Shown here: positions 25,669 through 58,219 of the stretch, piece by piece
How the letters are laid out: the number at the start of each line of letters is the position of its first letter
Numbering within the stretch: the stretch's first letter is position 1
NCBI GenBank assembly: GCA_029213025.1
Contig: JARGOZ010000002.1
Location: 8,338 to 72,337 of the forward strand
Length of the DNA stretch: 64,000 nucleotides
Reading direction: 5' to 3'
Origin: Verrucomicrobiales bacterium
GTDB taxonomy: Bacteria > Verrucomicrobiota > Verrucomicrobiia > Verrucomicrobiales > DEV007
Program-made: the position numbers and the translations under genes
The notes under the pieces: model-generated
Databases searched by the model: none
Told to the model about the DNA's origin: nothing
Seen by the model: only the letters and a program-made list of their open reading frames with translations

Positions 25669-26358
25669 ATGAAAACCGAAAAACATACCACGAAACACAA
25701 AAGAATGCGGAGCCCGGCCTTTTCCCTCGTCGAGCTGATGACCGTTGTATCAATCATGGCGATACTTACAGCGGTAGCCTCTCCGGGATTAAAAATTGCG
25801 ATGATCAACGCCCAGCAAAATGCAGCAATGGGCAATGCCCGCAGTATCGCAATGGGGTTGAGAACCTACGCTCAGGATTACGAAGGCGCGTTCCCGGGAT
25901 TTGAAACCGACGAAGGCGAAACGATTTCCACGTCAAACGATGCGTTTCGTCTGCTGCTGCCGGACTACATCGATTCGGAGCGGGTTTTTGCCGTAAAACG
26001 ATCCGCATGGGGCAAAAAAGCAGACGGCAGGATCGATGAGCCGGAGGATCGTCTTCGCGCCGGCGAAAATCATTTCGCGTATATCGCCGGACTGCTCGAC
26101 ACCTCGCGAACCGACTGGCCACTTGTCGTGGACGGAACGGACGGGAGCGGCAAATACACCAGCACCAACGGAGTAAAAGGCGGCTGCTGGGAAGGTCGTA
26201 AAGGCATCGTTGTTACAGTGGGCGGCAGCGGTCATGTCTACAGAATGAGCGGGGACGGGGATTCCCGGTTCATTCCCCGCTATGGCTATCCTGACGAAAA
26301 TGCTCTCGATGTCGGCTCCTATATGGGCGAAATTGCGCAACTTCTTGACCCCGAGTAG
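25669..26358 (+). CDS. prepilin-type N-terminal cleavage/methylation domain protein
   Basis: AFSLVELMTVVSIMAILTAVASPG is the class III signal / pilin-like hydrophobic helix. The start could instead be the internal Met at 25705. Confidence 0.8.
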   Translation: MKTEKHTTKHKRMRSPAFSLVELMTVVSIMAILTAVASPGLKIAMINAQQNAAMGNARSIAMGLRTYAQDYEGAFPGFETDEGETISTSNDAFRLLLPDYIDSERVFAVKRSAWGKKADGRIDEPEDRLRAGENHFAYIAGLLDTSRTDWPLVVDGTDGSGKYTSTNGVKGGCWEGRKGIVVTVGGSGHVYRMSGDGDSRFIPRYGYPDENALDVGSYMGEIAQLLDPE

Positions 26359-26423
26359 AGATTTGCGGTAAGCTTCGTTGGAGGGTGGTGCTTCGTTCCT
26401 CCGGGCACTGCCCGCCATTTTCT

Positions 26424-27650
26424 ATGAAAAATGCTATTTGGATCGGTCGCAGGCAGGTCAAAGGGCTTATTGTGCTCCTCGCGCTTCTGCCTTTGATTCC
26501 AACGTCGTTTTTGATCCATACGATGTGGTTGAAGATGGCCAACGAACACGTCCGGGTTGTCGACGAGATGAACACTGCGTTCCGCACCCAGTTGAGACTC
26601 GCAGTGGAAAGATATTCAACGGAACCTCGTGAACAGTCCCGAAGTGGCAAACAGCTGGTTCAGTTTTTGACCCATGTTTTCGGGTCGGATCTGCCGATGA
26701 CTGTAATCTCCAAACAAGGGCTGGTGATATACCAAAGCAAAACGCCGATGTCGGGAAGTGAGTTTGACTATCGCATCGTAAACGGGGAATTCGCCGGATG
26801 GAATATATTGATCGATTCCGTTACCGAGATTCCCCAGCACATTATGGAGGAGGAGAAAGCCACTTTAAAGCAGGCTGTGATTGCTCTCGTTAGTACGATT
26901 TTGATTGCCGGCGGAGTCTGGTTGATTGTGAACCGGGGCTTGAAGACCGATGAGATCCGCAAAGATCTGATTACTACCATTTCCCATGAAATTAAAACGC
27001 CGGTGGCAGCCATTAAAATCCTGACTGAATCACTGGAGTCCGGAACTCTTGAGCCGACTGTGCAGAGTGAATATCTCCGGCTAATTGCGAGGGAGAATGA
27101 AAGAATCGAACATCTTGCCGATCGCTTCCTGACTTACGGACGACTCGAAAAAGGGCAGCTTCCGATTGAGCGGAAAGAGACTGCACTGACAAGAGTGATC
27201 GAGGATATCGCAGGAATGCTGGCCCCGCGCTTCAATTCGGTGCAGGGGGAAATTTCGATCACCGGGGAAAAAGGAGTCACAGTCCAGGGGGACCACAACG
27301 GTCTTTCTATACTTTTCACCAATCTACTGGAAAACGCATTGAAATACGGAGGCACACCTCCCCGGGTGCGGATTGATGTAGCCAAAGCAGGCGGCAATGC
27401 ATTGATCACGGTAATGGATAACGGGCGGGGAATACCGGAAGCCGAACACAAAGCCGTGTTCCGGCGTTTTTACCGCAGCGAAGGGCGGCTTGATGACGGG
27501 CAGACCGGGGTCGGGTTGGGACTCGCCATTTGCCGGAGGATTACCCGTCTTATGAAAGGATCTCTATCGCTTGCCGCATCCGGTGACCGGGAATATCCGG
27601 GTGCGGAATTTCAGATCCGGTTACCACTCAGTTCCGGCGCAAAAGTATAG
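26424..27650 (+). CDS. sensor histidine kinase
   Basis: Two TM segments, SHEIKTPVAAI (H-box), NLLENALKYG (N-box) and GVGLGLAICRR (G2). It is followed 1 nt later by a response regulator gene. Confidence 0.88.
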   Translation: MKNAIWIGRRQVKGLIVLLALLPLIPTSFLIHTMWLKMANEHVRVVDEMNTAFRTQLRLAVERYSTEPREQSRSGKQLVQFLTHVFGSDLPMTVISKQGLVIYQSKTPMSGSEFDYRIVNGEFAGWNILIDSVTEIPQHIMEEEKATLKQAVIALVSTILIAGGVWLIVNRGLKTDEIRKDLITTISHEIKTPVAAIKILTESLESGTLEPTVQSEYLRLIARENERIEHLADRFLTYGRLEKGQLPIERKETALTRVIEDIAGMLAPRFNSVQGEISITGEKGVTVQGDHNGLSILFTNLLENALKYGGTPPRVRIDVAKAGGNALITVMDNGRGIPEAEHKAVFRRFYRSEGRLDDGQTGVGLGLAICRRITRLMKGSLSLAASGDREYPGAEFQIRLPLSSGAKV

Positions 27651-27651
27651 T

Positions 27652-28338
27652 ATGAATGCCAATCTACTACTGGTCGAGGATGACCCTACTTTGCTGCGGG
27701 TTTTGTCGGATACTTTTCACGCAAAGAATTACCGGGTTACTACGGCATCTGACGGGGAGAAAGCTCTCGAAGCAGGTTTGAATCAAAAATTCGACATCAT
27801 CATTCTCGATGTGATGTTGCCATTCGTAAACGGATATGAAATTTGTAGATATCTGAGAGCGGAAAATGTAGAAACACCGATCATTTTTCTGACTGCCAAA
27901 AGTGAGGAATCCGACATACTACTCGGTCTCGGTCTGGGCGGGGATGACTACCTGGCGAAGCCTTTCAGTATCAAAGAACTTCTGGCCCGGATTGAGGCCG
28001 TGCTGCGCCGCACCGGCCCGGCTGAGAAAGAGCAGAATAATATGACTGTATGTTTCGGGGATTTCGAGTTGGATCAATTTTCTCATAAGCTGCGAAACAA
28101 AGACGGCACTCCTGTGAAATTGTCTCCGAAAGAATATGACCTACTCGCTTTCCTGATTCAGCACAGTGGTGAAGCTTTGAGTCGGCAGAAGATTATGGAC
28201 AGCGTTTGGGGCTATGACTCCCGGGTTACCTTCCGGAGTATCGACCGGTTTATTACCACTTTGCGGAAGAAGATCGAACTCGAAACAGGTCGGCACATAG
28301 AGACGATCAGAGAATTCGGTTATCGGTTTAAGGTCTAG
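27652..28338 (+). CDS. OmpR-family response regulator
   Basis: LLLVEDDP...DIIILDVMLPFVNGYE...LTAK...KPF receiver domain plus a winged-helix C-terminus (LSPKEYDLLAFL...GYRF). ATG 27652 follows immediately after the kinase stop. Confidence 0.92.
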   Translation: MNANLLLVEDDPTLLRVLSDTFHAKNYRVTTASDGEKALEAGLNQKFDIIILDVMLPFVNGYEICRYLRAENVETPIIFLTAKSEESDILLGLGLGGDDYLAKPFSIKELLARIEAVLRRTGPAEKEQNNMTVCFGDFELDQFSHKLRNKDGTPVKLSPKEYDLLAFLIQHSGEALSRQKIMDSVWGYDSRVTFRSIDRFITTLRKKIELETGRHIETIREFGYRFKV

Positions 28339-28346
28339 AAAATCCG

Positions 28347-28385
28347 ATTCAACAGGGTACAGTCCGTCATTCAACAGGGTACAAT
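28347..28385 (+). repeat. AACAGGGTACA-core intergenic repeat locus 4 (two direct copies)
   Basis: Cores lie at 28351-28361 and 28373-28383, exactly 22 bp apart. The locus occupies the whole spacer between the response regulator stop and the next start codon. Confidence 0.9.
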
Positions 28386-29074
28386 TGAAACTGGAACAAT
28401 TGAAACTGGAACAATTTATCGCAAAGAAGATGACCGTCAGCATTCGTTCGGCGAGGCTGGAAATTATTGCGGGGAGAGTGTCGGTTGCCGGTTCGGTATC
28501 AAAGAATTTTTCATCGGAGATTGATCCGTTCAACGAAATTGCGATAGGGGGTCGAATTCTGCAGAAAGGCAGACGAAGAATCCGTATCATGCTGAATAAG
28601 CCGGTAGGTTTCGTGAGCGCCACAACGGATTTGCATCACCCGACGGTGCTGGATTTAATAGATCATCCAGCCCGGGAGTCCCTCCATCTGGCAGGTCGGT
28701 TGGATCGATCTTCTACCGGTCTTGTGCTTGTAACAAATGACAGTTTGTGGTCGGAAAACCTGAGCCGTCCGGAGGAAAAGGTGGAGAAAGTATATATCGT
28801 GGAAACTGCTGAACCGATTCCCCAGGAGGCTATCGATAGATTTCAGCAGGGGTTCTATTTTGCCTGTGAAGATATCGTAACCCGGCCCGCTCTTTTGGAG
28901 CTGCTCGGTCCGTGCCGCGCCCGGGTCACTTTGACGGAGGGTAAATACCACCAGATAAAGAGGATGTTTCACCGGATCAACAAAATCCGACTGGTATCTC
29001 TCCACCGGGTAAGGATTGGGGAGTTCGTCCTGCCGGAAGATTTGTCGCCAGGAGAGTGGCGCGAGATTTATTGA
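28385..29074 (+). CDS. rRNA pseudouridine synthase, RsuA/RluB/RluF family (S4 domain + catalytic domain)
   Basis: LEQFIAKK... S4-like N-terminus, the catalytic-Asp motif GRLDRSSTGLVLVTND, and KYHQIKRMF. The start is either TTG 28385 or TTG 28400, because a 15-bp tandem duplication copies the start region. Confidence 0.85.
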   Translation: MKLEQLKLEQFIAKKMTVSIRSARLEIIAGRVSVAGSVSKNFSSEIDPFNEIAIGGRILQKGRRRIRIMLNKPVGFVSATTDLHHPTVLDLIDHPARESLHLAGRLDRSSTGLVLVTNDSLWSENLSRPEEKVEKVYIVETAEPIPQEAIDRFQQGFYFACEDIVTRPALLELLGPCRARVTLTEGKYHQIKRMFHRINKIRLVSLHRVRIGEFVLPEDLSPGEWREIY

Positions 29075-29469
29075 AGAGCTTCTGCAATGGAATTGACCTT
29101 ATCCGGTGTGATTCCTTTGGTCAGATCGCAGAAGTATAGCGGGCGCAGACCTGCTGGTAAATCGCAGGGTTGCAGGAGCAGCGGGATCAGTTTTCTATCG
29201 CCGTTGTTGGGATCGCGAAATGCAGCGGAGTGCCTTTCCATTGAACACCATTCGGAGCTGAGGTAGCTGGGTGAAATCAACACAATGAGATGCCTGGCGT
29301 TGTCGACTCCCCGTTCGATTTTGATAGAGATATGTTCGCCGAGACCAATTCGGTTCGGTGCAAACCATATCGATTTCTTCCGAATTTCGAGACCGTAGAC
29401 CAACTCGTGAGCGGCGTCTTCGTCATCGGTTGAGTAGCTGAGAAAAGCGTGATCCAGAAATGTAGCCAT
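29068..29469 (-). CDS. stand-alone TIR domain protein
   Basis: 133 aa with AFLSYSTDDED (TIR beta-A motif), IWFAP and HLIVLISPSYLSSEWCSMERH (SxxWCxxE with candidate catalytic Glu78). The 3' end overlaps the convergent pseudouridine synthase gene by 7 bp. Confidence 0.8.
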   Translation of the reverse strand: MATFLDHAFLSYSTDDEDAAHELVYGLEIRKKSIWFAPNRIGLGEHISIKIERGVDNARHLIVLISPSYLSSEWCSMERHSAAFRDPNNGDRKLIPLLLQPCDLPAGLRPLYFCDLTKGITPDKVNSIAEALQ

Positions 29470-29478
29470 GGCGGCGGG

Positions 29479-30255
29479 TTAACTAATCAGAGGTTCACCG
29501 TCGAGGTCGGGGCAAAGCGCAAGAAGGGACTCGACGGATTTCTTTCCTTCAGCGGCCATGGTATAGGTTTTTCTGGGAACTGTAGCCACGCAGTCGATCA
29601 AGCCTTTGTTGACCATCGCTCCCAGAGTAGCATCAACATTTTTTAACTGAATACTCCGGCGTTCCAGCTCAGCCCGGAAATGCCCGGCCTGATATCCGAC
29701 TTCGGACGTTTCCAGTTCAAACCAGCGGAACAGTAAAAGAACCGTTTGGGGATCGGTTAGCGGCCCGGAGTTATTCAAAAAGTGATCGACGACATCGCGT
29801 TCGGAGACTGTCGCAACCGGCAGGCTGACGGTGTCCCGGGTCTCTGCAATCTCAGCAACAGCGGGATTTGATACTTCCGGAGTGGCGACATCCTGGAAAT
29901 CGTCAGCTGCCTTTTCGATTTCGACAGCGAAACCGGTATCGACCCACCAGCAGGAAGCCTCATGAAAGTCATCGATCGAGGCGTGCTCTCTCAACACCGA
30001 CCAGATTTGGTACACCGGGCTGTTGGAAGGCGGCATATAGCCAGGAGGCGCCGGAGCCGCCGGTCTAAGATTTCTTACCTTAAGGTGCGCCCAGACTTTT
30101 GTCATCAACCAGGCCCGGTCCTCCTGCCCCAGATCGGAGAAAGGGCGATCAAAATCGTTGCTGTAGTTAAAAGCGCTCAAACTAAGAAAAATTAGTTTAA
30201 TTGCCAGAATTTCCAAGCAAAAACCGTATTTTATGAAAGCTATTATCAAAAACAA
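29479..30255 (-). CDS. hypothetical protein, partner of the TIR gene; C-terminal winged-helix-like region
   Basis: Its stop lies 9 bp upstream of the TIR start. I recognise no enzymatic motif. The C-terminal ~90 aa (TDPQTVLLLFRWF...NVDATLGAMVNKGLIDCVATVPRKTYTMAAEGKKSVESLL) looks like a wHTH. The start is uncertain: ATG 30255 gives a hydrophobic N-terminus encoded in AT-rich DNA; alternatives are TTG 30180 and ATG 30105. Confidence 0.55.
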   Translation of the reverse strand: MFLIIAFIKYGFCLEILAIKLIFLSLSAFNYSNDFDRPFSDLGQEDRAWLMTKVWAHLKVRNLRPAAPAPPGYMPPSNSPVYQIWSVLREHASIDDFHEASCWWVDTGFAVEIEKAADDFQDVATPEVSNPAVAEIAETRDTVSLPVATVSERDVVDHFLNNSGPLTDPQTVLLLFRWFELETSEVGYQAGHFRAELERRSIQLKNVDATLGAMVNKGLIDCVATVPRKTYTMAAEGKKSVESLLALCPDLDGEPLIS

Positions 30256-30481
30256 TATTAAATATTAAGAAAAATTTACTTTTATTAATATGGCGGGTTG
30301 AGTAAGTGTGGAAATGCTAATTATTATTAGATGCCAAGCGGTGATGGTCTATTTTTTCTTAGCTTTGTGTGTTGCCGGTTGTTTCCCGCCTGGTCAAATT
30401 TCGTGAAACAGTCTGAAAAAAACGTTGCTCAGACGGGATCTTACGACTTTTTAGGACTTCAAATTTCAACTACTCAAGATC

Positions 30482-57161: not shown

Positions 57162-57521
57162 ATGAACACCGAAAACAGCCAAAATCCTGAAGCCAATCAA
57201 GAAGTTCGAATCGTGTTGGTGACGTTCCCTAATCTTGAAACTGCGCGTCAAATTGGCACACTTTTAGTGGAGTCGCAACTGGTTGCGTGTGTGAATTTGC
57301 TCCCCGGCGTAGAGTCGATCTACCGGTGGGAAGGCGCCGTAACTACAGATACCGAGGTGGCCGGTTTCCTGAAAACATCGACCCGGCGACTGGCGCAGTT
57401 GGAAGAAACTTTTCTCCGGGAACACCCTTACGACGTACCGGAATTCCTTGTGTTAAAGCCGGAATCAGGTTTCGGCGGATATCTCGACTGGGTGAAACAA
57501 TCGTGCGAAAAAACTAATTAA
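57162..57521 (+). CDS. cutA: divalent-cation tolerance protein CutA
   Basis: VLVTFPNLETARQIGTLLVESQLVACVNLLPGVESIYRWEG...HPYDVPEFLVL is the typical CutA1 signature. Confidence 0.9.
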   Translation: MNTENSQNPEANQEVRIVLVTFPNLETARQIGTLLVESQLVACVNLLPGVESIYRWEGAVTTDTEVAGFLKTSTRRLAQLEETFLREHPYDVPEFLVLKPESGFGGYLDWVKQSCEKTN

Positions 57522-57715
57522 GAAATATTTATTGTTATAATTTCCAAATATTTTATATTTGTGAAACGTATAAGGATAGGACATAAGTATATCCGACGAA
57601 AAAACACCGTAATTTTAGATCATTAGAAATTTCGGAAATATTAATTAGACAAACGCCACAATATCATTACAGGTTTCTTTACTACGTTAATCCTTTGATT
57701 TTGTAGTGCACGAAA

Positions 57716-58219
57716 ATGACAACAAAAACTCACCATTTTTTACCCAGCCAGTTTTATCCCAAAACCAACCAATACGTTGTTCTGGTGGTGGATGACATGC
57801 AGGTGAACCGGGTTCTTCTTTCCAAAGTCTTCACTGCCTCCGGTTACGGAGTCGCCGAAGCTGATTCAGCGGAGTCCGCTGTGGAAATGATCGCCGGCGG
57901 ACTGATCAAGCCGGACGTGATTATCACCGACGTTGAGATGCCGGGGATGAATGGGATCTCGTTGACATCGCAAATTCGCTCCCTTCCCGGGCAGGCCGGT
58001 GAGATACCGATCATCGTCGCTTCGGGCAATCCGGATGCCGACATGGAAATGGATGCTTACGATGCGGGTGCGGATGTGTTTTTGACCAAACCTTTTAATC
58101 TCGCCCAGCTTCGGGATGAGGTTCGCGATGCCATCAAAGGTGACAACAATATCCGGGTTTCTGTTCGGAGACTCCATGGAAAGAGCGATGTAAATCGCCT
58201 CAGAACCAGGCTTCCGTAA
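57716..58219 (+). CDS. single-domain (CheY-like) response regulator
   Basis: VVLVVDDMQVNR...DVIITDVEMPGMNG...ASGN...TKPF, with no output domain. It is preceded by a ~190-bp AT-rich spacer. Confidence 0.88.
   Translation: MTTKTHHFLPSQFYPKTNQYVVLVVDDMQVNRVLLSKVFTASGYGVAEADSAESAVEMIAGGLIKPDVIITDVEMPGMNGISLTSQIRSLPGQAGEIPIIVASGNPDADMEMDAYDAGADVFLTKPFNLAQLRDEVRDAIKGDNNIRVSVRRLHGKSDVNRLRTRLP

Follow-up and report, generated by a model that had tools for sequence, protein, structure and literature searches.

A two-gene cassette of a TIR protein and a winged-helix partner with a conserved operator-like control region in a Verrucomicrobiales bacterium

The window analysed here is a stretch of 64 kb of genomic DNA from a Verrucomicrobiales bacterium. 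Its minus strand carries a two-gene system with a total size of 1.4 kb. The first gene (29479..30180, minus strand) encodes a partner protein of 233 amino acids, which NCBI lists as the hypothetical protein MDF1810730.1. The second gene (29068..29469, minus strand) encodes a minimal TIR domain of 133 amino acids, with no extra domain. Between them lies a spacer of 9 nt, CCCGCCGCC (29470..29478, minus strand), without a Shine-Dalgarno sequence. The partner and TIR genes are likely to be translationally coupled. In relatives, the spacer measures 21 nt or is replaced by a 4-nt overlap (TTGA). The TIR gene overlaps by 7 nt a convergent pseudouridine synthase gene (ORF 28385..29074). The neighbours of the cassette encode a PseudoU_synth_2 protein and an aminotransferase, named LL-diaminopimelate aminotransferase by NCBI. 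An earlier account of this DNA, made from the letters alone (the sequence-only reading), had described the 9-bp gap, the 7-nt overlap and housekeeping neighbours of the rsuA-like and dapL kinds. The coordinates bear out the first two, and the Pfam and NCBI names the third.

The same reading placed the 5' flank of the pair among the most AT-rich stretches. Indeed, no 166-nt windows in the 64 kb are richer in AT than 30167-30332 and 57509-57674, each of which has a GC content of 0.247. Because the partner starts at the TTG at 30180, the AT-rich flank is wholly non-coding promoter or operator DNA. The idea of a small insertion fared less well. Other contigs do show the cassette in other neighbourhoods, but its GC and GC3 are those of its neighbours, with no compositional anomaly, and neither flanking direct repeats nor a tRNA were found at the cassette. 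No mobile-element gene was found around it. Its composition gives no sign of a recent insertion, and a small insertion has only the indirect support of these other neighbourhoods. A search for known RNA elements in Rfam gave no match at E <= 1.

The ORF 29068..29469(-) is, by its sequence, a genuine TIR with a glutamate at the WxxxE position. It contains the motifs AFLSYSTDDED and LIVLISPSYLSSEWCSMERH, and Pfam TIR_2 matches it with an E-value of 7.4e-22 and 78.6 bits (cut-off 28). This alignment joins residues 9-124 to profile positions 2-115 of 122 and places the protein in the family, above the curated threshold. So, the TIR assignment of the sequence-only reading stands. The second Pfam match is TIR (E 2.6e-07). 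Residues S11, W74 and E78 are invariant across the family (alignments A3 and A5). Glu78 belongs to the motif W74-x3-E78, and Ala37 lies inside the invariant motif IWFAP. Profile matches in the PDB include TLR6, AbTir, TcpB, PdTIR, Cat1 and TIR-STING. The AlphaFold2 model of this protein, built from an alignment of 6 sequences, has a pLDDT of 41, too low to judge the fold from it.

The start of the partner gene, TTG 30180, was placed by alignment with homologs. L001 and L002, two of the related loci, present an in-frame stop just upstream of the equivalent TTG, and the NCBI annotation is also of 233 amino acids. The homolog starts and these stops rule out the longer ORF 29479..30255, which the sequence-only reading had assigned to the partner and which is 75 nt too long.

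The partner consists of three parts. The N-terminal orphan domain (residues 1-90; 29911..30180, minus strand; alignment A2) presents the motifs DFDxPFSxL, WLMTKVWAHLK and SxVYQxWxxLRExA. The prediction for this domain is a mostly helical structure, with low confidence (pLDDT about 45-60). An acidic linker follows (residues about 91-126; 29803..29910, minus strand). It varies in length, forms indel-rich columns in alignments A1 and A2, and is predicted to be disordered (pLDDT 24-29). Finally, the C-terminal part (residues 127-221; 29518..29802, minus strand) is modelled as a winged helix-turn-helix with a pLDDT of 85-91. Foldseek matched it to MarR, TcaR, F93, AspA, PadR-type and TubR-type winged helices at a probability of 0.97-1.0, with E-values of just 0.07-0.4. 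Weak matches to PadR, HTH_45 and TrmB occur among members of the partner family. Against the PDB and BFVD, Foldseek matched the winged helix alone, and the N-terminal domain had no match. Sequence searches of Pfam, PADLOC and the PDB gave no match for any partner homolog. NCBIfam and PHROGs gave none for the partner in the window, and in relatives only matches of E >= 0.018 to the winged-helix part. The model and the Foldseek matches agree with the winged-helix-like C-terminus suggested before, and the database searches with the earlier remark that the partner has no other recognised motif.

The AT-rich flank holds three or four palindromic boxes of the form CTAA-N6-TTAG, new in this analysis, which are operator-like. 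Box C, CTAATTTTTCTTAG (30182..30195, minus strand), is a palindrome whose end lies 1 nt short of the TTG start. Its sequence is identical at 14/14 positions in the window, L001, L002 and L005 (four of five loci) and at 13/14 in L004. Box C is non-coding, since in-frame stops precede it in L001 and L002; these stops, together with the homolog starts, rule it out as coding sequence. A conserved non-coding block, CTTGGAAA (30210..30217, minus strand), appears as a phylogenetic footprint in alignment A6. In each of the five loci it stands 14-15 nt upstream of Box C. TTGGAA could be a -35 element, and TAATTT (30189-30194), inside Box C and 16-17 nt downstream, the corresponding candidate -10.

Box B, CTAATTATTATTAG (30317..30330), has its centre 143.5 nt upstream of the start, with an equivalent at -145.5 in L001 and L002. 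Box A, CTAAGAAAAAATAG (30349..30362, minus strand), is centred at -175.5 and is an inverted repeat of Box C. Its equivalents lie at about -177.5 to -180.5 in L004, L001 and L002. The conserved box positions are then -8.5, about -144 and about -176 to -180. This spacing is kept between loci whose proteins are only about 50% identical. A degenerate extra box, TTAAGAAAAATTTA (30265..30278), is weak, with 3 mismatches to Box C, and is absent from the conservation with L001 and L002. The box-like sequence GTAAGAAATCTTAG (30065..30078, minus strand) lies within the partner coding region, over the codons for KVRNLR. It is present in L005 and absent from L001 and L002, and may be a coincidence.

The boxes are concentrated at this place. 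Exact CTAA-N6-TTAG occurs only twice in the 64 kb, both times upstream of the partner gene, and of the five matches with at most one mismatch, four lie inside 30065-30362. In L001 (11 kb) and L002 (8.9 kb), every match falls within the upstream 240 nt. Compared with dinucleotide shuffles of each AT-rich flank, the enrichment has P <= 0.003; these values are optimistic because the motif was derived from those same loci. The other AT-rich region, 57509-57674, is ordinary intergenic DNA upstream of a response-regulator gene and contains no boxes. Conserved boxes over the candidate promoter and the start codon would fit a DNA-binding autoregulator encoded upstream of the TIR.

The repeats could also be read as an invertible promoter. 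More precisely, Box A and Box C would be the inverted repeats of a segment of roughly 150 nt that switches the operon on and off by phase variation. Two arms of a 17-nt inverted repeat (30179-30195 and 30349-30365), 88% complementary, do flank an AT-rich stretch of 153 nt immediately before the gene. L001 and L002 share this arrangement, and in the L001 clade every contig is broken off 116-241 nt upstream of the gene. Nevertheless, the breaks fall at differing positions and not at the repeats, and the orientation is identical in 5/5 assemblies, with the CTTGGAAA block beside Box C. In the window, Pfam scans of 13.5-47.5 kb revealed no recombinase gene, and the genes called at the other loci include none. 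Box B and the palindromic core suit an operator array better than a recombination site. We regard phase variation as highly improbable here.

We compared the cassette with its relatives, which are few. The family forms five clusters among 5.8 billion proteins, and a HMMER scan of 1.84 billion representatives retrieved only P0002, P0009 and P0010. With the partner and the TIR as queries, the GTDB species genomes gave no relative. None was found either in JGI metagenomes or in IMG/VR, nor, with the partner as query, among plasmids and phages. The cassette is very rare and confined to uncultured Verrucomicrobiota-like bacteria.

The order of partner then TIR holds in 8/8 other core-family contigs and in at least three distinct neighbourhoods; it is documented in the window, L005, L001-L003, L012-L013 and L006. 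The two genes are adjacent in 9/9 core loci and in L008 wherever both sides are visible, although the co-occurrence statistics are thin because only about ten contigs exist. L008 is a distant pair with the same gene order and a partner about 23% identical. Adjacency in other genomes was a check proposed by the sequence-only reading, and every relative with both sides visible agrees with it. The neighbourhoods of the cassette are unrelated: rsuA/dapL, GFO_IDH_MocA/esterase/PSCyt2, and DUF1552. L012 and L013 show a variant of the second type, with PSCyt2 directly downstream. The cassette and its own control region recur together in several genomic contexts.

Both genes were subject to purifying selection, with dN/dS values of 0.06-0.12 and dS of up to 0.88. 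The values are 0.06-0.10 for the TIR gene and 0.08-0.12 for the partner gene.

The catalytic residues of the TIR were considered by profile alignment to PDB 7uxr, which we take, from its sequence, to be the TIR domain of AbTir. S140, W204 and E208 of AbTir are the counterparts of S11, W74 and E78, and Glu78 aligns with the second glutamate of NWTEYE, which is E208. The NADase activity of AbTir needs S140, W204 and E208, including the glutamate of WxxxE (PMC11374754). Hence Glu78 does occupy the position of the NADase catalytic glutamate, as the sequence-only reading held. AbTir D167 and R151 are both required for NADase activity in AbTir and TcpC (PMC11374754), and the family alignments show neither equivalent in the core clade. 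D167 is replaced by the invariant Ala37 (IWFAP), and R151 by His21 or serine. The equivalent of AbTir R215 is likewise not conserved in the family. The distant L008 TIR retains the aspartate (WFDE) and the WxxxE motif. The sequence-closest solved TIRs include the domains of TLR1, TLR2, TLR6 and TLR10, which also have SEWC..E. These TLR domains are non-enzymatic. The missing equivalents of D167 and R151, together with the TLR-type best matches, point against a catalytic reading of the putative NADase TIR.

The TIR might then be an interaction or scaffolding module, as in TLR-type TIRs. The partner would be the autoregulated transcription factor of the operon, and the pair would serve a lineage-specific regulatory circuit outside defence. 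The loss of both residues and the non-catalytic TLR TIRs among the best PDB sequence matches suit this alternative. Housekeeping neighbours and a host-like composition do so too, and the strong purifying selection agrees with a stable chromosomal function. On the other hand, S11, W74 and E78 remain invariant, the cassette changes its genomic context yet keeps its own control region, and it is conflict systems that more typically show a distribution so patchy and rare. On balance, we consider this non-enzymatic role unlikely, while giving it real weight.

TIR domains have a central role in the immunity of bacteria, plants and animals. Bacterial TIRs are known in two roles: they generate signals (Thoeris), or they deplete NAD+ as effectors joined to sensors (CBASS, Pycsar, SPARTA, Avs, SpbK, Cat1). 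The absence of a canonical TIR partner nearby, stated in the sequence-only reading, agrees with Pfam scans of the large ORFs at 13.5-47.5 kb, which detected no domain of the SIR2, SLOG, Macro, cyclase, STING or STAND kinds. Membership in CBASS, Pycsar, SPARTA or Avs is not indicated: no cyclase, short pAgo or STAND NTPase occurs in the ORFs of 13.5-47.5 kb or in the flanking genes of the other loci. Defence islands, which that reading had proposed to look for, were found neither around the cassette in the window (Pfam, ORFs of 13.5-47.5 kb) nor in the other contigs.

The best PADLOC match of the TIR is PDC-S66 (E 1.7e-13), a single-gene candidate without a described mechanism. It is not a full-length match. 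It covers only profile positions 152-239 of 282, the TIR part, and the remainder of the profile has no counterpart in the partner. In the literature, PDC-S66 receives only passing mention, in two genome papers. Compared with AbTir, TcpB/BtpA, PdTIR and TcpC (TIR_2), the cassette TIR shows profile homology over the whole domain and shares the serine of beta-A and the tryptophan and glutamate of WxxxE. It differs in being only 133 amino acids long, with no coiled-coil or other N-terminal region, in having Ala37 for D167 and histidine or serine at position 21 for R151, and in its operon with a winged-helix protein. Its host is an environmental Verrucomicrobiales bacterium and not a pathogen.

SpbK, from the ICEBs1 element of B. 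subtilis, is a TIR NADase triggered by YonE of phage SPbeta (PMC12847820, PMC11984713). Like SpbK, the cassette TIR would be an NAD+-depleting effector outside Thoeris, CBASS and pAgo systems, and the L001 and L008 TIRs weakly match the PADLOC spbK models. However, SpbK is a single, larger protein that itself senses a phage protein, whereas the cassette TIR is bare and always paired with the winged-helix protein.

In Thoeris, a ThsB TIR is paired with an effector, and types I-XI and 29 predicted types are described (bioRxiv 10.64898/2025.12.03.692087). Both Thoeris and the cassette are compact operons of a small TIR and one partner of variable or unknown family. A Thoeris-like signalling pair is a reading to weigh. 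New Thoeris types have been defined by just such a pattern, in which a TIR gene shares a two-gene operon with a gene whose product is uncharacterised. The TIR would sense infection and make an NAD+-derived nucleotide, and the partner would be a receptor with transcriptional output. Its N-terminal domain would bind the signal, and the winged helix would alter its own operon and perhaps other genes, in a manner likened to the CARF-wHTH factor Csa3 of CRISPR signalling. The layout of the partner (N-terminal domain, linker, C-terminal wHTH) suits this role, as do the WFDE aspartate and WxxxE of the L008 TIR and weak PADLOC ThsB matches of 1e-8.

Those ThsB matches, at 1e-8 or weaker, rank behind PDC-S66, and Pfam ThsB_TIR gives 13.6 bits, below the cut-off of 21.2. 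The TIR is thus not recognised as ThsB, and it lacks its own sensor domain. For the partner, Pfam and PADLOC gave no match, and no known effector is adjacent. The partner is a winged-helix protein, unlike the SIR2-SLOG, Macro, transmembrane, nuclease or protease effectors of Thoeris. The 29 Thoeris types and their supplements contain no HTH effector, and no HTH partner appears in that survey (bioRxiv 10.64898/2025.12.03.692087) or in the E. coli TIR survey. Moreover, an N-terminal domain of about 90 amino acids, predicted helical at low confidence, does not resemble a Rossmann-type nucleotide sensor, and the cassette has neither a defence island nor a cell-killing effector. We hold a Thoeris-like pair to be quite unlikely. 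The gene order and the operator-like array suggest a regulator or antitoxin as partner rather than an effector.

The explanation that we favour, with somewhat less than an even chance of being correct, is a self-contained, autoregulated bicistronic operon. It would be a type II toxin-antitoxin-like or abortive-infection module with a putative TIR effector. The winged helix of the partner, probably as a dimer, would bind the CTAA-N6-TTAG palindromes. Box C overlaps the likely -10 and the start codon, and Boxes A and B lie 135-170 nt upstream, so a bound partner could keep transcription of both genes low by autorepression. The second gene, presumably coupled in translation to the first, would supply a bare TIR without its own sensor domain, which we take as the effector. 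Other bacterial TIRs suggest, by analogy, that it may consume NAD+ or form an ADP-ribose-derived product once self-associated. The conserved N-terminal domain and the protease-prone acidic linker of the partner could restrain the TIR or act in sensing. If the partner were lost or titrated away, the operon would be derepressed and the TIR set free. For this model we infer contact between partner and TIR, enzymatic activity of the TIR, toxicity and a link to phage.

The gene arrangement is that of type II systems: the genes are adjacent, co-directional, tightly spaced or overlapping, and always linked. A putative DNA-binding antitoxin acting on promoter palindromes would correspond to the modelled wHTH and the enriched, conserved candidate operator boxes. 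Against a toxin-antitoxin role, the partner (233 amino acids) exceeds the putative toxin in size, and a C-terminal DNA-binding domain is unusual for a type II antitoxin.

The layout resembles RES-Xre (NatR-NatT, PMC11535050) and MbcT-MbcA pairs, where the gene for a DNA-binding protein likewise lies upstream, close and co-directional, followed by a small NAD+ consumer (putative in the cassette). Palindromic operator-like promoter sites occur in both. However, the putative toxin would have a TIR fold and not a RES, TNT or SPN fold. The partner is larger than the toxin, and its winged helix is PadR/MarR-like and C-terminal, in place of the N-terminal HTH of Xre. Among the NAD+-degrading toxins that PMC8494770 lists for toxin-antitoxin or toxin-immunity pairs, none is a TIR, and our literature search found no paper with the phrase 'TIR toxin' or its variants.

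The cassette also recalls AbiE, whose AbiEi is a wHTH antitoxin and autorepressor and whose AbiEii is a nucleotidyltransferase toxin. In both, a bifunctional two-domain winged-helix protein would bind inverted repeats in its own promoter, and its gene precedes that of the effector in a two-gene operon of the abortive-infection or toxin-antitoxin kind. They share no sequence homology. The wHTH of the cassette is C-terminal, with the domain order reversed, and its effector would be a TIR and not a nucleotidyltransferase.

If the toxin-antitoxin reading is true, this would be the first type II system with a TIR toxin and a winged-helix antitoxin. A bare TIR in obligate linkage with a DNA-binding protein, and accompanied by an operator array of its own, would represent a different control logic. 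It could be a transcriptional or antitoxin-type restraint of the TIR, or a transcription factor that reads a TIR signal. In the second case, which we judge improbable, the TIR pathway would have a gene-regulatory output. An NAD+-derived messenger made by the bare TIR would be read by the orphan N-terminal domain, which would cause the winged helix to bind or leave the CTAA-N6-TTAG operators. It would then be a Thoeris-like system with a transcription factor as 'effector', and its N-terminal domain would represent a new fold for nucleotide sensing. The general importance is uncertain, because many uncharacterised TIR operons exist and this cassette is so rare and confined in its hosts. The cassette would also offer a first entry point to the function of an orphan protein family. 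This family extends to P0009, a full-length distant relative of the partner (hhalign probability 97%), which adjoins the PADLOC candidate defence pair PDC-M04A/B.

The cassette exists, is conserved and occurs very rarely; both the family of the partner and the control region are new. Both ORFs of the sequence-only reading are present as described. The downstream one (29068..29469, minus strand, 133 aa) corresponds to MDF1810729.1 at NCBI, a TIR domain-containing protein. Its TIR identity holds: Pfam TIR_2 matches residues 9-124 over profile positions 2-115 of 122, scoring 78.6 bits where the cut-off is 28 (E-value 7.4e-22). The second Pfam match is TIR (2.6e-07). For the upstream partner gene, the coordinates proposed earlier, 29479..30255, were those of the longest ORF and overshoot. 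Homologs about 50% identical start with MGAFSYIHDFD, aligned with LSAFNYSNDFD in the window, and in L001 and L002, two other contigs with loci of the core family, the reading frame is closed by a TAG or TAA 6-7 codons before the equivalent TTG. Thus, the real gene is 29479..30180 on the minus strand, with a TTG start and 233 aa. The NCBI annotation agrees on this length (MDF1810730.1, hypothetical protein). The AT-rich stretch upstream of the partner gene is wholly non-coding.

The partner protein of the window has no sequence match in Pfam, PADLOC, NCBIfam, PHROGs or PDB. The N-terminal domain, residues 1-90, is strongly conserved and carries the motifs DFDxPFSxL, WLMTKVWAHLK and SxVYQxWxxLRExA; its AlphaFold2 model is poor, and no relatives of it are detectable. 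Residues ~91-126 make up an acidic, indel-rich linker that is predicted to be disordered. The C-terminus had been described as winged-helix-like, and the structural model is consistent with this. In AlphaFold2, with a six-sequence alignment, residues 127-221 reach a pLDDT of 85-91 and the pattern H-H-H-H-beta-beta-H. Foldseek relates this predicted domain to winged-helix proteins (MarR, TcaR, MepR, SSV/STIV F93, AspA, TubR and PadR-type) with probabilities of 0.97-1.0 and weak E-values (0.07-0.4), the latter being expected because the domain has only ~95 residues. Weak PadR, HTH_45, TrmB and LexA_DNA_bind matches also occur among members of the partner family. Such a pair could be read as Thoeris-like signalling, with a transcription factor as the receptor. 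This is distinctly unlikely; a survey of 29 Thoeris types includes no HTH effector.

In a word-indexed search of 5.8 billion proteins, the partner fell into five clusters, with identities of 97, 70 and ~50%, and the TIR into three. When 1.84 billion representatives were scanned in full by HMMER with the partner profile, only three proteins came up at E <= 0.001. No relatives were found in GTDB species genomes, JGI metagenomes or IMG/VR. Likewise, none were found on plasmids or phages with the partner as query; the plasmid relatives of the TIR are at most 35% identical to it. Adjacency, which the earlier reading had proposed to examine in other genomes, is kept: the partner precedes the TIR gene on the same strand in every contig with both sides visible. 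The spacing is 9 nt in the window, as previously reported, and 9 nt, 21 nt or a 4-nt overlap (TTGA) across loci. A Shine-Dalgarno sequence is missing from all these junctions, pointing to translational coupling. Purifying selection acts on both genes (dN/dS of 0.06-0.12, with dS up to 0.88, in four pairwise comparisons).

The TIR gene overlaps the convergent PseudoU_synth_2 gene by 7 nt, and the neighbour on the other side encodes LL-diaminopimelate aminotransferase, both as first described. Pfam scans of 13.5-47.5 kb found two-component systems, an MFS transporter, an acyltransferase, Rieske, cytochrome b, LysM, S41 and M1 peptidases, and Rho. In this stretch there is neither a defence island nor a canonical TIR partner; the absence of such partners had already been noticed. 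The idea of a small insertion is not confirmed. The neighbourhoods do differ among relatives: rsuA-like and dapL genes in the window and contig L005; GFO_IDH_MocA, esterase, PSCyt2/PSD1 and DUF1501 in L001-L003; PSCyt2/PSD1 directly downstream in L012 and L013; and DUF1552 in L006. However, the window itself has no supporting feature. In GC and GC3 the cassette does not differ from its neighbours, and there is no tRNA, Rfam match or flanking direct repeat at it. Thus, it is the neighbourhoods of the relatives, and only these, that suggest mobility. Elsewhere in the window, ORF 25669-26358 encodes a prepilin-type N-terminal segment, FSLVELMTVVSIMAILTAV, has no Pfam match at E <= 1e-5 and lies upstream of a two-component system (26385-28338). 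This is typical of the prepilin-like proteins that are abundant in Verrucomicrobiota and Planctomycetota.

The flank of the cassette was said to be among the most AT-rich stretches; indeed, the minimum GC of any 166-nt segment, 0.247, is shared by 30167-30332 and 57509-57674. The second is an unremarkable intergenic region that precedes a stand-alone response-regulator gene (57716..58219), with a PAS histidine kinase and a sigma-54 activator close by, and contains no CTAA-N6-TTAG box. Upstream of the partner gene there are 14-bp palindromes of this form whose spacer is A/T-rich. One base separates Box C (30182-30195, CTAATTTTTCTTAG on the gene strand) from the TTG start. Its sequence is the same at 14/14 positions in L005, L001 and L002 and at 13/14 in L004, even though L001-clade proteins are only ~50% identical to those of the window. 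Box B (30317-30330) and Box A (30349-30362) are centred at -143.5 and -175.5, and their equivalents in L001, L002 and L004 at ~-145.5 and ~-177.5 to -180.5. Boxes B and C are the only two exact CTAA-N6-TTAG sites in the 64-kb window, where 0.32 are expected and two were reached in 4 of 100 shuffles. If up to one mismatch is allowed, the window has five matches, of which four fall within 30065-30362, and every match of L001 (11 kb) and L002 (8.9 kb) is in the first 240 nt. Relative to shuffles of each AT-rich flank that preserve dinucleotides, the enrichment has P = 0.0002 (window), <0.0002 (L001), 0.0008 (L002) and 0.0026 (L004), values that are optimistic because the same data served to define the motif. 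These counts show that the boxes are no chance occurrence, and their replication across clades is a stronger argument than the P-values. One box-like sequence, GTAAGAAATCTTAG, lies at 30065-30078 within the coding sequence of the partner, where the codons specify KVRNLR. It is similar to Box A of L001; L005 has it, and L001 and L002 lack it.

Phylogenetic footprinting marks three conserved islands in otherwise diverged DNA: Box A, Box C and, 14-15 nt upstream of the latter, the block CTTGGAAA. TTGGAA could be a candidate -35 element, and TAATTT inside Box C, 16-17 nt downstream, a candidate -10. If this promoter is real, the mRNA would be nearly leaderless and the putative operator would lie over the promoter. 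A generic promoter scan chose a different, weak site over Boxes A and B. The operon could also have an invertible promoter upstream. This is highly improbable: one orientation is common to 5/5 assemblies, and no recombinase was found in the scanned window stretch (13.5-47.5 kb) or in the gene calls of the other loci.

In the L001 clade, each of the five contigs breaks off only 116-241 nt upstream of the partner gene, within the AT-rich control region or just past it (L001:1-241, L002:1-236, L003:1-236, L012:1-145 and L013:1-116). Low coverage of AT-rich DNA, strain variation or structural polymorphism could explain these ends. L002 starts with four tandem copies of GGATTAG (L002:1-28), ~20 nt upstream of Box A; these copies could be a genuine repeat or an artefact of the assembly.

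In the best-supported model, to which we give slightly less than an even chance, the two genes would form an autoregulated bicistronic module, either toxin-antitoxin or abortive-infection in type. The winged helix of the partner would bind the CTAA-N6-TTAG boxes and so repress the operon. The bare TIR would be the effector, and the N-terminal domain of the partner, with its labile-looking linker, would restrain the TIR or sense a trigger. By analogy, RES-Xre and AbiE would be the closest functional counterparts. The NAD+-degrading toxins of toxin-antitoxin or toxin-immunity pairs in PMC8494770 are SPN, TNT, MbcT, Tne2 and RES, with TIR not among them, and our literature search found no paper on a TIR toxin-antitoxin pair. 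The cassette belongs to no named system; in kind it would be a TIR-based two-gene conflict or toxin-antitoxin-like module.

The profile of the small TIR family matches 39 solved TIR domains, including TLR6, TLR1, TLR10, TLR2, AbTir, TcpB/BtpA, PdTIR, Cat1, TIR-STING and MyD88. The AlphaFold2 model of the TIR has a pLDDT of 41, too low to judge the fold from. In the profile alignment to the PDB 7uxr chain, which we take from its sequence to be the AbTir TIR domain, S11, W74 and E78 pair with S140, W204 and E208. AbTir loses its activity in S140A, W204A and E208 mutants (PMC11374754), so the earlier placement of Glu78 at the catalytic position is correct at the level of sequence alignment. Other positions argue against an enzymatic TIR. 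According to PMC11374754, NADase activity in AbTir and TcpC alike depends critically on AbTir D167 and R151. D167 adjoins E208 in the ligand-bound structure. In the core TIR family, an invariant Ala occupies the D167 position, inside the invariant motif IWFAP(N/H)RI. R151 is replaced by His or Ser, and R215 is not conserved. Moreover, non-enzymatic TLR TIRs with the same SEWC..E motif are among the top PDB matches. The catalytic competence of the cassette TIR is uncertain. A non-enzymatic regulatory pair would agree with these substitutions; weighed against the pairing of the S, W and E residues, we consider it rather unlikely and prefer the toxin-antitoxin or abortive-infection type of module.

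A comparable arrangement is found on contig L008, where a much more distant partner-like gene (P0010) is followed after 21 nt by a TIR_2 gene. P0010 aligns with the partner at an hhalign probability of 94.8%, over the winged-helix half only. The L008 TIR is 31% identical to that of the window and carries WFDE, with the Asp kept, and EWVRTE. P0009 (L007:1977-2645), with homology to the full length of the partner (probability 97%), is the only distant relative of this extent and has no TIR downstream. It is convergent to a PADLOC candidate defence pair at L007:2813-3867 on the minus strand (PDC-M04B, E 1e-52; PDC-M04A/DUF3800, E 5e-53). Distant TIR genes on plasmids likewise follow a small upstream gene. 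These loci are on the Streptomyces plasmid NZ_CP108049.1 (L010, 2220-3588) and on Nitrosococcus oceani plasmid A (L009, 2734-3951). One of the upstream genes encodes an XRE-family regulator; the other encodes a DUF2188 protein, with an AbiEii-family toxin gene ~1.5 kb away. A small regulator or partner followed by a TIR may therefore be a recurrent layout with non-homologous partners.
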